Assembly (NCBI GenBank): GCA_020633335.1
Contig: JACKDU010000002.1
Coordinates: 186,730 to 250,729, forward strand
Source of the DNA: Myxococcales bacterium
GTDB lineage: Bacteria > Myxococcota_A > Polyangia > Nannocystales > Nannocystaceae
Length of the DNA stretch: 64,000 bases
Reading direction: 5' to 3'
Part shown: positions 4,590 to 51,378 of the stretch, piece by piece
Layout: each line of letters starts with the position of its first letter
How positions within the stretch are numbered: the first letter of the stretch is position 1
Translations under genes and position numbers: made by a program
The notes under the pieces: model-generated
What the model saw: only the letters and a program-made list of their open reading frames with translations
Databases searched by the model: none
Told to the model about the DNA's origin: nothing

Positions 4590-6570
4590 ACTTGAACTGG
4601 GTCATCGGCCCCTCCTCGGCGGGGTCGATGTCGACGTTCTCGCCGCTGAGGTCGCGGGGCTTCCGCTTGAGGGAGACGTCGATCGGCGCCATGCCGGCCT
4701 TGATCTCGACCTTCTCCTCCCAGCTCTTGTAGCGCGGCGCCTCGATCTTGAGGGTGTGCTGGCCGGGCGGGAGCGACACCGTGCCCGGGACCGTGCCGGC
4801 CCTCTTGCCGTCGACGAAGAGGGTCGCCTTGGGCTTGACCGTGAACTCGACGGCGACGCCCCCGGCGACCGGCGGGGGCGCGGCCTCCTCGCCGGTGCTC
4901 TCGCCCTCGCCGCCGCTGCTCGTCGCGTCCTCGTCGCCGCCGCTGGTGGTCGCGGCCGCGACCTCGGCGGCGGCGGTGGTCGTCGCGGCCTCGCTCGGGG
5001 CCTCCCCGGTCGGCGGGGCGTTGCCCGCGTCGGCGTCGCCCTTGAGCGCCGCCAGGCGGGCGTTGGCCTCGGCGTGCTCCGGGTCGGTCGCCAGGATCTG
5101 GTGGTAGGCCGCGAGCGCCGCGACCTCATCGCCATCGGCCTCGAGCTGCTTGGCCCGGGCGAGGAGCGTCGCCACGTCGGTCGCCTCGGGCGCGACCGGC
5201 ACCTGCGGCGGCTGCGTCGGCGGCTGCTGGGTGATCGGCGGCTGCGGCTGCGGCGGCGGACCGAGCCCGAGGAGCTCGGGCTTGAAGAAGTAGATCCCGC
5301 CGACGACGGCCGCGACCAACACCAGGAAGATCAGGAAGCCGTTGCCGCCCCCCTTCTTCTCCTCCTCCGGTGGCGCCGGCCGCTCGGGGGCCTCGTTGAC
5401 CGCCCACGACGACGACGCGGTCGGCGGCTCCTTGATCGAGAGGTCGCCGATCGCCGGCGCCGCCCCGCGGACGCTCGAGTCCTCGTTGGGATCGTCGTGG
5501 GTCTCGGTGATGTTCTCCTCGAGGACCGGGGCCGCCAGGCGGGCGTGGGCGGAGGCCGCCGCGCTCGGCACCTCTGGCTCCTCCTCCTCGTCCTCCGCCG
5601 CCGCGACCACGCCGGCCGCGGCGACCGGCGCCGCGGCCTCGTCGGCCCCCTCCGCCTCGAGCTTGGGCGGCGGCACCGGCACCCGGAAGAGCGCCGCCGG
5701 CACGCAGTCGATCAGGCGCTCGACGATCTCGTTGGCGTCGACCGGGCGATCGTCGGGATCCTTGCGCAGGCAGTCCTCGATCAGCTCGATCAGCTCCTCC
5801 GGCAGCTCCTCGTCGCCGACCAGATCGGCGAGCCTCGGCGGCGGATCGTTGACCTGGCTGTAGACCACCTGGGCGTCGGCGCCGACGAAGGGCGGCCGAC
5901 CGGCGAGGAGCTCGTAGAAGATCGCCCCGAGCGCGTAGACGTCGGTGCGGGTGTCGACCGGCTTGCTCGAGATCTGCTCGGGCGCGAGGTAGCGAGGATC
6001 GCCGACGACCGGCGCCTCCGTTCCCTGGACGTGGCCCTCGACGAGCTGCACGAGGCCGAGGTCGAGGATCCGGGTGAAGCCCCGGGTGGTGTCGCCGTCG
6101 TCGACGCAGATCCGGACGTTGGCGGGCTTGAGATCGAGGTGGAGGAGCCCGCGGAGGTGGGCCGCGCCGAGCCCCTTGAGGAGCTGCGCGGCGATCGGCA
6201 CGAACTCGTCGAGGCTGAGCGAGCCCTTGCGGGCGACGAAGTCGGCGAGGGACTCGCCCTCGACCAGCTCGGCGACGACGAAGACGCCGCGGCCGGGATC
6301 GCGGCCGAAGTCGATGAGGGCGGCGATGTTCGGCGCCTCGAGGGTGCTCAGCGAGCGCGCCGCCTGCTCGAAGCGGTTGGCCGCGTCGCTGTCGCCCGCC
6401 CACTCGACGTCGAGGAGCTTGAGCACGACCTGGCGATGAAGAGAGCGGTGCTCCGCGAGGTAGGTCGCGCTCCGCTGCCCGCGCGCGAGCACCTGCGTGA
6501 CCACATAGTGGGTGCCGACGGTGCGCCCGATGAGCAGGTCGGGGGAGGTTGGTGCTCTGCTGGTCGTCAT
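4579..6570 (-). CDS. Ser/Thr protein kinase with Pro-rich linker, TM helix, TPR-like segment and C-terminal PEGA domain
   Basis: kinase subdomains present (GxGxxG-like LARGQRSATY, VLK, HLDLKPANV, DLG, APE); TM FLIFLVLVAAVVGGIYFF; C-terminal VEFTVKPKATLFVDGKRAGTVPGTVSLPPGQHTLKIEAPRY is PEGA-like; ATG at 6570. Confidence 0.8.
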   Translation of the reverse strand: MTTSRAPTSPDLLIGRTVGTHYVVTQVLARGQRSATYLAEHRSLHRQVVLKLLDVEWAGDSDAANRFEQAARSLSTLEAPNIAALIDFGRDPGRGVFVVAELVEGESLADFVARKGSLSLDEFVPIAAQLLKGLGAAHLRGLLHLDLKPANVRICVDDGDTTRGFTRILDLGLVQLVEGHVQGTEAPVVGDPRYLAPEQISSKPVDTRTDVYALGAIFYELLAGRPPFVGADAQVVYSQVNDPPPRLADLVGDEELPEELIELIEDCLRKDPDDRPVDANEIVERLIDCVPAALFRVPVPPPKLEAEGADEAAAPVAAAGVVAAAEDEEEEPEVPSAAASAHARLAAPVLEENITETHDDPNEDSSVRGAAPAIGDLSIKEPPTASSSWAVNEAPERPAPPEEEKKGGGNGFLIFLVLVAAVVGGIYFFKPELLGLGPPPQPQPPITQQPPTQPPQVPVAPEATDVATLLARAKQLEADGDEVAALAAYHQILATDPEHAEANARLAALKGDADAGNAPPTGEAPSEAATTTAAAEVAAATTSGGDEDATSSGGEGESTGEEAAPPPVAGGVAVEFTVKPKATLFVDGKRAGTVPGTVSLPPGQHTLKIEAPRYKSWEEKVEIKAGMAPIDVSLKRKPRDLSGENVDIDPAEEGPMTQFKFKK

Positions 6571-13088: not shown

Positions 13089-13760
13089 ATGAATTTTCAG
13101 CTCGGGCTGATCGCCAAGAAGATTGGGATGACGCAGATCTTTGACGAGGATGGCAACCGGATCCCGGTGACCGTCCTCGCCGCCGCCGGCAACACGGTGA
13201 CCGCCCACCGGACCGCCGAGCGCGACGGCTACGTCGCCCTCCAGCTCGCCTTCGACGAGAAGAAGCCCCATCGCACCAACAAGGCCGACGCCGGCCACTT
13301 CCGGGCCGCAGGCGTGAGCCCCCGCTACCGCCTCCGTGAGTTCCGGGTCGCCGCCGACGCGCTCGGCGCCCACCCGGTCGGCGCGGACGTCCCGGTCACC
13401 ATCTTCACCGAGGGTGAGCTCGTCGACGTCGCTGGCGTCTCGAAGGGCAAGGGCTACCAGGGCGTCATGAAGCGCCACAACATGGAGGGCGAGAAGGCCA
13501 CCCACGGCCAGCACGAGTTCTACCGCCACGGCGGTTCGATCGGCTGCCGCAAGACCCCCGGCCGCGTCCACCCCGGCAAGCGCATGAGCGGCCGCATGGG
13601 CAACGAGCGGGTCACCCAGCAGAACCTCAAGGTCGCCAAGATCATGGCCGATCAGGGTCTGATCCTGGTCAGCGGGACCATCCCGGGCTCGGACAACGGC
13701 TACGTGACGATCCGCCACTCGGTGAAGGCGGCGATCCGGGCCGGCAAGAACAAGGGCTAA
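13089..13760 (+). CDS. rplC: 50S ribosomal protein L3
   Basis: MNFQLGLIAKKIGMTQIFDEDGNRIPVTVL and GKGYQGVMKRHN are canonical L3 blocks; GGAGAA Shine-Dalgarno 7 nt upstream. Confidence 0.9.
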   Translation: MNFQLGLIAKKIGMTQIFDEDGNRIPVTVLAAAGNTVTAHRTAERDGYVALQLAFDEKKPHRTNKADAGHFRAAGVSPRYRLREFRVAADALGAHPVGADVPVTIFTEGELVDVAGVSKGKGYQGVMKRHNMEGEKATHGQHEFYRHGGSIGCRKTPGRVHPGKRMSGRMGNERVTQQNLKVAKIMADQGLILVSGTIPGSDNGYVTIRHSVKAAIRAGKNKG

Positions 13761-13872: not shown

Positions 13873-14508
13873 ATGCCCCCCCGTCGCACAAAGCTGAGCG
13901 ATCGCTCGAGCCGCCACGACCGCGCCTACACCAAGGCGAAGCACGAGGGCTTCGCCGCCCGCGCGATCTACAAGCTCCAGGAGATCGATCAGCGCTTCAA
14001 GCTCCTGAAGAGCGGCGCCCGGGTCATCGACCTCGGCTGCTGGCCCGGCTCGTGGATGCAGTACACCGCCGGCAAGGTCGGCCCCGAGGGCCGGGTCCTC
14101 GGCATCGACCTCCGCGAGGTGACGATCGCCCTCCCCGACTTCTGCGAGGCGATCGTCGGTGACGTCACCGAGTGGAGCCCGCCGGCCGGGGAGACCTTCG
14201 ACGTCGTCCTCAGCGACATGGCCCCGCACACCACCGGCGATCGCCACAGCGACCAGTGGCGGAGCGAGGAGCTCTGCCGCCGGGCCATCGAGATCGCCCG
14301 CCAGGCGCTGCGCCCCGGCGGCCACCTGGTGGTCAAGGTCTTCCAGGGCGGCGCCTTCCCGGAGCTCCTCCGCGAGCTCCGCGGCGCCTTCCAGGAGGGC
14401 AAGGCCTACCACGCCGAGAACACCCGGGCGTCGTCGACCGAGCAGTACCTGATCGGCCGCGGCCTCAAGGCGTCCGCGTCGCTCCGCGCCCCCGCGCCGG
14501 CGACCTAG
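13873..14508 (+). CDS. rlmE: 23S rRNA (uridine2552-2'-O)-methyltransferase RlmE/FtsJ
   Basis: AIYKLQEIDQRFKLLKSGARVIDLGCWPGSWMQY and DVVLSDMAPHTTG are FtsJ/RlmE motifs. Confidence 0.85.
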   Translation: MPPRRTKLSDRSSRHDRAYTKAKHEGFAARAIYKLQEIDQRFKLLKSGARVIDLGCWPGSWMQYTAGKVGPEGRVLGIDLREVTIALPDFCEAIVGDVTEWSPPAGETFDVVLSDMAPHTTGDRHSDQWRSEELCRRAIEIARQALRPGGHLVVKVFQGGAFPELLRELRGAFQEGKAYHAENTRASSTEQYLIGRGLKASASLRAPAPAT

Positions 14509-14642
14509 CCCCTCGCAAGGCCACCCGAACCTCGCGCCGCCGACCTCGACGCTGGGCACCGCGTCGGCGTCGGCGAGCTCCACGCGTGGTGTCGCGTCGA
14601 CGCTTCGCGGGCCGACGCGCCGCCTCGATCAACAAGTTGAAT

Positions 14643-14668
14643 GGGACATGTCTCTTTGAACATGTCCC
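14643..14668. promoter_or_regulatory. palindromic motif GGGACATGT-ctctttga-ACATGTCCC (ACATGT-N8-ACATGT), copy 1 of a recurring element
   Basis: perfect 9-bp inverted repeat in an AT-rich intergenic island; the same core recurs at 46708 and 51295. Confidence 0.4.
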
Positions 14669-14849
14669 TTACTCTCGACCCCCATCGACGACGTCGCGCG
14701 CGGCTCCGCGCGCCCAACGTCCGCCGTGGTCTCCGGGCCCCCGCGCGTTGCCGCGCAGGGCCGCGCGCGAACGCTCCTCACGCGCACTCACGCCCGCCAA
14801 TTCGCCGTTCTGGAGGAGAATCACCTCGCTACACTGTGCGTCCGAGCAG

Positions 14850-14893
14850 GGATCCGATTGACACTGAAAATACGTTCAGTGACGATCGGATCC
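14850..14893. promoter_or_regulatory. 44-bp nested palindrome / stem-loop GGATCCGAT-tga-CACTGAA-aatacg-TTCAGTG-acg-ATCGGATCC ending immediately before an ATG
   Basis: outer 9-bp and inner 7-bp perfect inverted repeats read directly from the sequence; located in the lowest-GC stretch of the rlmE-typA gap. Confidence 0.45.
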
Positions 14894-15091
14894 ATGAAGA
14901 CCCCGAAGCTGCGCCTCAACCGCGGGTCGTCGAAGCAGGTGCCTCCACCCGACGACCCCGATCTCCCCGAAAGCGCCGAGAAGCCCGCTCCTGAGGCCTC
15001 TCGACCGCCGGCCCGGACGCCCAGCGATCGCCGGCCGAAGACCGACAAGCCCGCCGACAAGGGCGACGAGGAGGAGCGGAGCGCCGCCTGA
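14894..15091 (+). CDS. hypothetical small basic/acidic disordered protein (65 aa, [15 protein letters not shown]...)
   Basis: ATG directly after the palindrome; strong G/C third-position bias (aag, ccg, ctg, cgc codons) typical of genuine genes in this genome; no homology recognised. Confidence 0.3.
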
Positions 15092-15215
15092 ACGCCGCCG
15101 CCGCCGCCGAGAGAAGCCGACGGGCGAGCGCCCACCGCAGATGCGGGCGCCGCCCGTTGATCGCGAAGGGGCTTGCATCGCGAGCGCGCACAGGGATAGT
15201 TGCGGCGGCTCCACC

Positions 15216-17063
<1,848 letters not shown>

Positions 17064-51294: not shown

Positions 51295-51318
51295 CCACAT
51301 GTCTCATTGGACATGTGG
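51295..51318. promoter_or_regulatory. copy 3 of the ACATGT motif: CCACATGTC-tcattg-GACATGTGG, perfect 9-bp inverted repeat, ~90 bp upstream of the LTD gene; degenerate copy at 51351..51367
   Basis: read directly; second partial copy tCATGTcccttcggACAG 33 bp downstream. Confidence 0.4.
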
Positions 51319-51378
51319 ATGCGCCCCTCCCCGCGGGCGCGCCCATCCTTCATGTCCCTTCGGACAGAAAAGAACAAC

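Follow-up and report, generated by a model that had tools for sequence, protein, structure and literature searches.

In a 64,000-nucleotide stretch of contig JACKDU010000002.1 from a Nannocystaceae-like myxobacterium (hereafter the window, meaning the whole stretch analysed), a 44-bp near-perfect palindrome ends directly before the ATG, at 14894, of a 65-codon open reading frame (ORF) located between rlmE and bipA. We consider it likely that this site is an operator of the LexA type, placed in the promoter of a small gene that is restricted to one lineage and probably leaderless. The palindrome reads GGATCCGAT-TGA-CACTGAA-AATACG-TTCAGTG-ACG-ATCGGATCC, and its core very probably acts as a protein operator and not as an RNA element; from sequence comparison, the predicted binding protein is probably LexA.

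The palindrome was the top inverted repeat of the region in an inverted-repeat search. Its stem consists of 18 pairs, of which one is G-U, with a single A x A mismatch. The RNA fold of the palindrome reaches -30.9 kcal/mol, against -14.6 +/- 2.7 kcal/mol for dinucleotide shuffles (z = -6.0; none of 200 shuffles was as good), and in the minimum-free-energy fold the UG of the AUG is paired. The entire palindrome is base-for-base the same in four further assemblies of the window species (L123-L126) and is thus not an assembly artefact. We also ruled out a copy of a repetitive extragenic palindrome or of a miniature inverted-repeat transposable element, with GGATCCGAT occurring at chance frequency and the box described below being unique in the window. 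The sequence-only reading, an earlier annotation made without database searches, had described a near-perfect palindrome ending exactly at an ATG, inside a low-GC island and followed by a 65-codon ORF rich in proline and charged residues without a hydrophobic core, and all of these points stood. The window has about 72% G+C (GC) overall, and 90-nt segments at about 14790-14940 drop to 0.53-0.57, versus about 0.72 around them.

Among 5.8 billion clusters, seven protein clusters matched the 65-residue protein, with only six other relatives (60-68% identity). When 1.84 billion representative proteins were searched with a profile, the yield was two representatives of the small protein and no distant relatives of it, and the gene was present in two of 185,579 GTDB species genomes, one Polyangia metagenome-assembled genome (MAG) and one Nannocystaceae MAG. 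Two more orthologs (L015 and L115) came from a motif scan of metagenomes, and the ortholog set comprised ten loci: the window, L001-L007, L015 and L115. In these searches, no occurrence of the gene fell outside one small clade made up of uncultured Polyangia/Nannocystaceae. The order rlmE-ORF-bipA was kept at every locus with a long enough contig.

The earlier annotation had also taken the ORF for a genuine small-protein gene, to be abandoned if relatives lacked coding-type conservation, and such conservation was present. Pairwise ratios of nonsynonymous to synonymous substitution rates (dN/dS) ranged from 0.06 to 0.42 among the orthologs, with synonymous sites near saturation (dS up to 1.7). 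Of 65 alignment columns per codon position, 26 varied at the first position, 21 at the second and 56 at the third, and nearly all third bases in the codons of an invariant 10-residue motif had changed synonymously. Because of this low dN/dS and third-position variation, the ORF is almost certainly a real gene on comparative grounds. The strong G/C bias that had been ascribed to its third codon positions is there, with GC of 0.71/0.59/0.85 over the three positions, but it is weaker than in the neighbouring genes, whose third positions reach 0.93-0.97. The start codon is fixed by 1-nt indels just upstream of the ATG in L002 and L007 and by a GTG at the same place in L005. In the latter locus (1450-1482), an in-frame TGA removes the last ten codons, and the downstream codons still read ...VDHEPRSAA and a stop as in the rest of the family; a sequencing error, read-through or a newly arisen nonsense mutation might each account for this.

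We recovered a common layout over the ten loci: TTGACA, CTGAAC-N4-GTTCAG, a T, GAnnnT, 6-8 unconserved nucleotides and the start codon (Table 1). The box never departed by more than two mismatches from CTGAAC-N4-GTTCAG, one half-site being always perfect. CACTGA and TCAGTG were invariant, and the N4 centre varied (AATA, GCGC, GCAT, TTGT, ACTC, GAGC and others). The core is CTGAAAATACGTTCAG in the window genome, with GAAA-N4-GTTC in place of the GAAC-N4-GTTC that is exact in the orthologs. The predicted -10 hexamer took the forms GACGAT, GAGCAT, GACACT and GATGCT, and only L007 (GACACC) departed from GAnnnT. No Shine-Dalgarno sequence was seen in any ortholog, the 6-8 nt before the start being unconserved and containing 1-nt indels. 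Since the half-sites are kept, the centre is free, the flanks correspond to promoter hexamers and pairing shows no covariation (see below), we read the site as a dimer-binding DNA operator within a promoter. A protein-binding operator was one of the options of the sequence-only reading, and it is the one that the conserved half-sites, the free centre, the SOS-box match and the association with SOS genes bear out.

The SOS box consensus of Myxococcus xanthus is CTRHAMRYBYGTTCAGS, as defined in earlier work cited in PMC9705874, and M. xanthus LexA gel-shifts a lexA probe (GTTGACT-CTACACGTCTGTTCAGG-GAGAG) and a recA2 probe that contains CTAAAAGCGCGTTCAGG (PMC9705874). The window box agrees with this consensus at 15 of 17 positions, the consensus being that of M. 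xanthus, which is distant from the uncultured lineage of the window. The boxes of the eight orthologs that lie within two mismatches score 15-16/17, with 16/17 in L001 and L006 and 15/17 in L002, L003, L004 and L007; the L005 box is more than two mismatches away from the 17-mer and has two mismatches to the 16-nt palindromic core. The box was the sole site with at most one mismatch in the 64 kb, where 0.04 would be expected, for a pattern chosen after the site had been seen.

The same layout recurred in front of DNA-damage genes. Scanning the JGI metagenomes for TTGACN followed by CTGAAC-N4-GTTCAG, we obtained 117 sites, and 22 of the 85 downstream ORFs (at least 60 aa) were DNA-damage genes: 13 RecA/ImuA-like (one true RecA), three Peptidase_S24 (LexA-like), three DprA, two DnaE2 and one RecN. 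The main non-SOS groups among the hits were nine MerR-family regulators and five FadL/TodX genes. An independent test was provided by two stand-alone dnaE2 homologs chosen by protein similarity alone, whose -35 elements fall outside the scan pattern. Upstream of dnaE2 in L127, from an NCBI "Myxococcales bacterium" MAG, we found CTGACA-CTGAACATCCGTTCAG-gTACAGT, and in L129 TCGACAa-CTGAACACCCGTTCAG-TATCCT; both have a perfect CTGAAC-N4-GTTCAG between -35-like and -10-like hexamers. Further dnaE2 homologs (P0013, P0016, P0019 and P0026) were uninformative where the gene sits inside an imuB operon.

Some hits of the scan deserve mention on their own account. In three high-GC metagenome contigs (L024, L032 and L056), dprA (DNA_processg_A) lies directly behind the same arrangement of -35 and LexA box, which suggests that DprA belongs to the SOS regulon of these organisms. 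The genes for FadL/TodX-family outer-membrane transporters (L010, L012, L021, L065 and L105) stand behind two boxes (...GAATGAACGTTCATTCAG...TTGACACTGAACGTTCGTTCAG) and may be under a different regulator acting on a GAAC-N-GTTC-type site. High-GC phage-like contigs (L079 at 4810-4990; also L038, L062, L088, L092 and L103) have arrays in which four to five CACTGAAC-N4-GTTCAGTG boxes are interspersed with palindromes of the TGACATGTCA type, beside long poly-T/A tracts; such arrays may represent damage-responsive control or the origin region of a mobile element.

In the mechanism that we propose for the small gene, a LexA dimer on the box between the predicted hexamers TTGACA (a perfect -35) and GACGAT (a weak -10) would block RNA polymerase until DNA damage, through RecA-stimulated self-cleavage of LexA, made the promoter accessible. 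The first transcribed base would be the A of the ATG, about 7 nt past the -10 hexamer, and the resulting leaderless mRNA would not depend on a ribosome-binding site. The start codon lies 14 nt after the end of the box in the window, and it falls 6-8 nt past the predicted -10 hexamer in all ten loci (ATG, or GTG in L005). A similar distance was observed for the imuA-like and dnaE2 hits with a start within 20 nt of the box: in 12 out of 13, the start is 12-14 nt past the box end, that is, a -10 hexamer plus 6-8 nt. With neither a Shine-Dalgarno sequence nor conservation in the 6-8-nt gap, a leaderless reading is the simplest one, and we consider a leaderless mRNA rather more probable than a leadered one on these predicted positions. 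An mRNA that begins with the ATG or right beside it would lack most of the palindrome.

Table 1. Features of the small-gene locus (window coordinates).
Feature	Position	Strand	Basis or remarks
Conserved upstream block GGAGGAGAATCAC-N5-TACACT, followed by a degenerate second inverted LexA-like box (14833-14849)	14812-14849	.	Ortholog alignment
44-bp near-perfect palindrome	14850-14893	.	Comprises the predicted promoter hexamers, the operator and outer arms found in this species only
Outer arm GGATCC, 5' side	14850-14855	.	Window species only; CAGTCA-CC and similar in other orthologs
Predicted -35 hexamer TTGACA	14858-14863	+	Inferred; TTGACA in 8/10 orthologs, TGGACA in L004 and L007; abuts the box
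LexA-type SOS box CTGAAAATACGTTCAGT (palindromic core 14864-14879)	14864-14880	+	Fills the predicted 17-nt promoter spacer; 15/17 to consensus
Predicted weak -10 hexamer GACGAT	14881-14886	+	Inferred; GAnnnT in 9/10 orthologs
Outer arm GGATCC, 3' side	14888-14893	.	In the unconserved 6-8 nt between predicted -10 and ATG
Gene for 65-residue proline-/charge-rich disordered protein (NCBI KC420_04695, "hypothetical protein")	14894-15091	+	Homologs, dN/dS, codon-position pattern

Several observations weigh against a LexA-controlled promoter. The window box deviates from the M. xanthus consensus at positions 9 and 17, and the LexA motif assumed for the lineage is that of relatives and of M. xanthus, not one read from SOS promoters of the window genome itself. 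A CTGAAC..GTTCAG core also occurs within operators of the MerR family and does not by itself identify LexA. The promoter hexamers were argued from conservation only, and they and the transcription start rest on prediction: the putative -10 matches the consensus at three of six positions, and a promoter/terminator scanner run over 14400-15400 called neither a sigma-70-like nor a terminator-like site. About 55 nt upstream, at 14830-14835, lies a conserved TACACT that could serve as the -10 of another promoter, and a transcript from there would contain the palindrome. Finally, LexA binding does not explain the six extra perfect pairs formed by the outer arms in the window species, for which the chance is about 1 in 4096.

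An operator for another dimeric transcription factor, for instance of the MerR family or XRE-type, is an alternative that we consider unlikely. Such a factor would account for the nine metagenome hits in which the CTGAAC..GTTCAG core belongs to autoregulated MerR-family genes and for the boxes of the five FadL/TodX genes, and the symmetry in the window species exceeds a LexA footprint. However, the MerR sites form a longer palindrome, TTGACC-CTGAACC-NN-GGTTCAG-GGTCAA, with a diagnostic 19-nt spacer and an adjoining MerR gene, whereas the predicted window spacer is 17 nt long and no regulator gene was found between rlmE and bipA. The match to the gel-shifted M. xanthus boxes and a layout tied to lexA, recA, imuA, dnaE2 and recN also argue for LexA instead. 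A functionless palindrome, with chance or mutational symmetry around an ordinary constitutive promoter, appears highly improbable. It would agree with the unconserved outer arms, which may stem from a quasi-palindrome template switch, three clustered changes on the 5' side having created a GGATCC opposite a 3' CGGATCC that L007 has too; but the CACTGA(A/C)-N-TCAGTG core is invariant in the ten loci despite near-saturated synonymous sites, and it fits a known operator consensus for which so few sites are expected in 64 kb.

The sequence-only reading had put forward a hairpin that sequesters a ribosome-binding site (a riboregulator or thermosensor) and, as another option, a structured small RNA; neither was borne out. 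An RNA hairpin in a 5' leader would control translation if the transcript came from upstream, for example from past the TACACT element, whose conservation is compatible with this, and if the stem hid the start region until melted. The hairpin is indeed very stable in the window species, ends at the AUG and pairs its UG, and the 6-bp extension is both improbable by chance and fixed in five assemblies. Nonetheless, no ortholog has a Shine-Dalgarno sequence to hide, and the ortholog hairpins reach only -10 to -20 kcal/mol, versus about -29 to -30.9 kcal/mol in the window species. The conservation of the palindrome in relatives, proposed earlier as a check, was partial: the inner core was kept, but the outer half was broken, the outermost GGATCC/GGATCC pairs, including the two outermost stem pairs, being unpaired in six of the eight aligned orthologs. 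We detected no covariation above shuffles in the full hairpin (77.7% of cells paired versus 77.5% in shuffled alignments), and RNAalifold on the ten sequences (215-nt upstream region) kept only the invariant 6-bp core, that of the operator, with +0.47 as the covariation term. Alignment columns 79-132 may form a further, weak helix, for which there were just three compensatory pairs. The Rfam scan that had been suggested as a check (Rfam 15, permissive thresholds, 14400-15400) gave nothing above noise, the best match, mir-1677, scoring 17.8 bits (E = 2.1) where the gathering score is 84. The conserved flanks, moreover, read as -35 and -10 hexamers with canonical spacing, and the ATG lies where a leaderless start would fall. 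We hold translational control by this hairpin to be very unlikely. A structured small RNA with an incidental ORF has next to no probability in our view: the strong local fold, the GC dip and the intergenic region of about 700 nt with other conserved blocks would suit it, but the protein is under purifying selection, and there is no Rfam family, covariation or terminator-like site to go with it.

Under the preferred reading as a LexA-type operator, the outer arms of the palindrome need a separate explanation. Compared with the orthologs, the 5' side has changed from ...CAGTCA-CC... to ...CAGGGATCC..., and the 3' arm occupies a stretch in which L002 and L007 have 1-nt indels, evidence that it neither encodes protein nor serves as a conserved partner for pairing. 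The GGATCC arms are probably without conserved function, as judged from the alignment, and it is possible that they arose by one template-switch quasi-palindrome "correction" or through selection in the lineage. The same changes on the 5' side destroyed another element of the window species: in L001-L007, L015 and L115, a second, inverted and weaker LexA-like box, ACTGAACACTTCAGCAG (reverse complement CTGCTGAAGTGTTCAGT), lies about 29 nt upstream of the main box, and the corresponding stretch of the window is decayed and reads ACTGTGCGTCCGAGCAG / CTGCTCGGACGCACAGT. This second box of the orthologs is similar to CTGCTTGTTTGTTCAGG, the pafBC box of M. xanthus, which is bound weakly.

The part of the upstream block that ends with TACACT (14812-14837) is situated 30-80 nt upstream of the -35 hexamer. 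A further conserved GC-rich block (...GCGATGCCGCTCAG...GCGCG...) about 110-170 nt upstream showed weak hints of structure only. Judged by eye, the spacings fit neither an extracytoplasmic-function (ECF) sigma factor or sigma-54 at the hexamers nor ArgR (an ARG box) at the core, and we dropped these readings. ACATGT, which had been reported upstream of the palindrome, is present there in copies at 14646 and 14660, 185-204 nt upstream. It forms a paired element that occurs twice in the window, GGGACATGTCTCTTTGAACATGTCCC and CCACATGTCTCATTGGACATGTGG (a 9-bp perfect inverted repeat), at 14643-14668 and 51295-51318, with CATGTCCCTT nearby at 14661-14670 and 51352-51361; in shuffles, 0.00 occurrences of ACATGT-N8-20-ACATGT were expected. 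Most orthologous loci have retained ACATG repeats in the corresponding place, some 200-250 nt before the small gene.

The gene order on the + strand is TatD, ribosomal protein L3, FtsJ/RlmE (13873-14508), a 700-nt gap and BipA/TypA (15216-17063). The gene for ribosomal protein L3 stands alone between tatD and rlmE (13089-13760), not visibly in an S10-type ribosomal operon, and its Pfam match covers the central part only. In the window, 124 nt separate the small ORF from bipA, versus about 340 nt in several orthologs. bipA has a conserved promoter-like sequence of its own, TTGCAT-16 nt-GATAGT (15173-15200; GAAAGT in orthologs), and no Shine-Dalgarno sequence was seen before its start; with this promoter placed 15 nt before the ATG, the bipA leader must be very short or absent.

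The 65-residue protein contains 20% proline and no aromatic residues, and its grand average of hydropathy is -1.4 to -1.7. The best 19-residue hydropathy window is below 0, and there is no hydrophobic or transmembrane segment. An AlphaFold2 (AF2) model contained no secondary structure (predicted template modelling score, pTM, 0.17), and profile searches with the protein in Pfam, NCBIfam, PHROGs, PADLOC and PDB returned no match. On the model and composition, the product is predicted to be intrinsically disordered. Conserved features are a basic N-terminus (MKKPKLRLERGSSK), the invariant 10-residue motif, an RRPKTDK motif and an acidic tail. The C-terminus is kept as -LSAA, -RSAA or -RPAA (-SAA/-PAA) in the window protein and all orthologs; we take this ending to resemble the Ala-Ala end of ssrA-type ClpXP degradation tags, which could mean that the protein is short-lived. 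We make no claim for DDPDLP as an acidic D-D-x-[IL]-P tail of the kind seen in the SSB C-terminus and the FtsZ C-terminal peptide, the motif being internal and without the essential aromatic residue. Our guess is that the product is a short-lived damage-response effector working via short linear motifs.

Several known systems invite comparison. The "Cheo box" of Gram-positive LexA/DinR is GAAC-N4-GTTC, and it is exact in the orthologs and modified in the window; it is a dimer operator overlapping a promoter, as predicted for the window box, but the CT/AG flanks of the window box follow the myxobacterial consensus, not CGAAC...GTTCG. The likeness is closer to the lexA and recA2 boxes of M. xanthus, with the GTTCAG half-site of the 17-nt motif intact in the window. 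In the M. xanthus lexA probe (TTGACT-CTACAC...GTTCAGG), the box comes right after the -35 and fills the spacer, as in the layout predicted for the window, and the recA2 box is closely similar to the window box. On the other hand, the window has a more symmetric CTGAAC-N4-GTTCAG arrangement, both half-sites being near-perfect, with T instead of G/C at position 17, its box is a predicted LexA site, and its gene encodes an uncharacterised small protein. The imuA-imuB-dnaE2 promoters of the metagenomes and the MAG have the order of -35, box as spacer, -10 and ATG 12-14 nt past the box that is predicted for the window; they differ by their known repair and mutagenesis products and by better -10 hexamers (TAAATT, TATGAT, TACACT), compared with GACGAT in the window. 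RNA thermometers and riboregulators such as ROSE and fourU resemble the window species, and it alone, in having a stable hairpin beside the start codon, but the window stem lacks a Shine-Dalgarno sequence, conserved pairing and covariation and is probably untranscribed.

Division inhibitors are the best-known class of characterised SOS-induced small proteins (PMC4211646, PMC6851548). SulA and the SidA, YneA, SosA and ChiZ types are, like the product of the window gene, small lineage-restricted proteins under a LexA-type operator; however, the 65-aa protein is without a transmembrane segment, a SulA or other Pfam domain and a predicted fold. We thus do not count it among SulA or the membrane-anchored SidA/YneA/SosA types, with no SulA domain and no transmembrane helix found in it. 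The directly LexA-repressed set of M. xanthus is small, at five genes (PMC9705874), and no damage-induced division or checkpoint effector turned up for myxobacteria in the literature, in which no search aimed at one was made.

The control by a LexA-type operator is most likely of an ordinary kind, and it is the regulated protein that is new to study. Conserved among uncultured Polyangia of sea and soil and placed directly behind a strong box of the SOS type, the small gene is a concrete candidate for such study. The recurring design, with the box as promoter spacer and the ATG at leaderless distance, could help to predict SOS regulons in high-GC metagenomes, and the lesson for annotation is that what looks like a striking "RNA hairpin" beside a start codon may be just an operator with promoter hexamers. 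More speculatively, and with the odds rather against it, the gene might stand for a new kind of SOS effector in Nannocystaceae-like myxobacteria: a soluble protein acting via the 10-residue motif and RRPKTDK, maybe short-lived and made from a leaderless mRNA, possibly a checkpoint factor or a replisome- or ribosome-directed modulator, with the 44-bp operator possibly adding a second, structural layer of control in one species.

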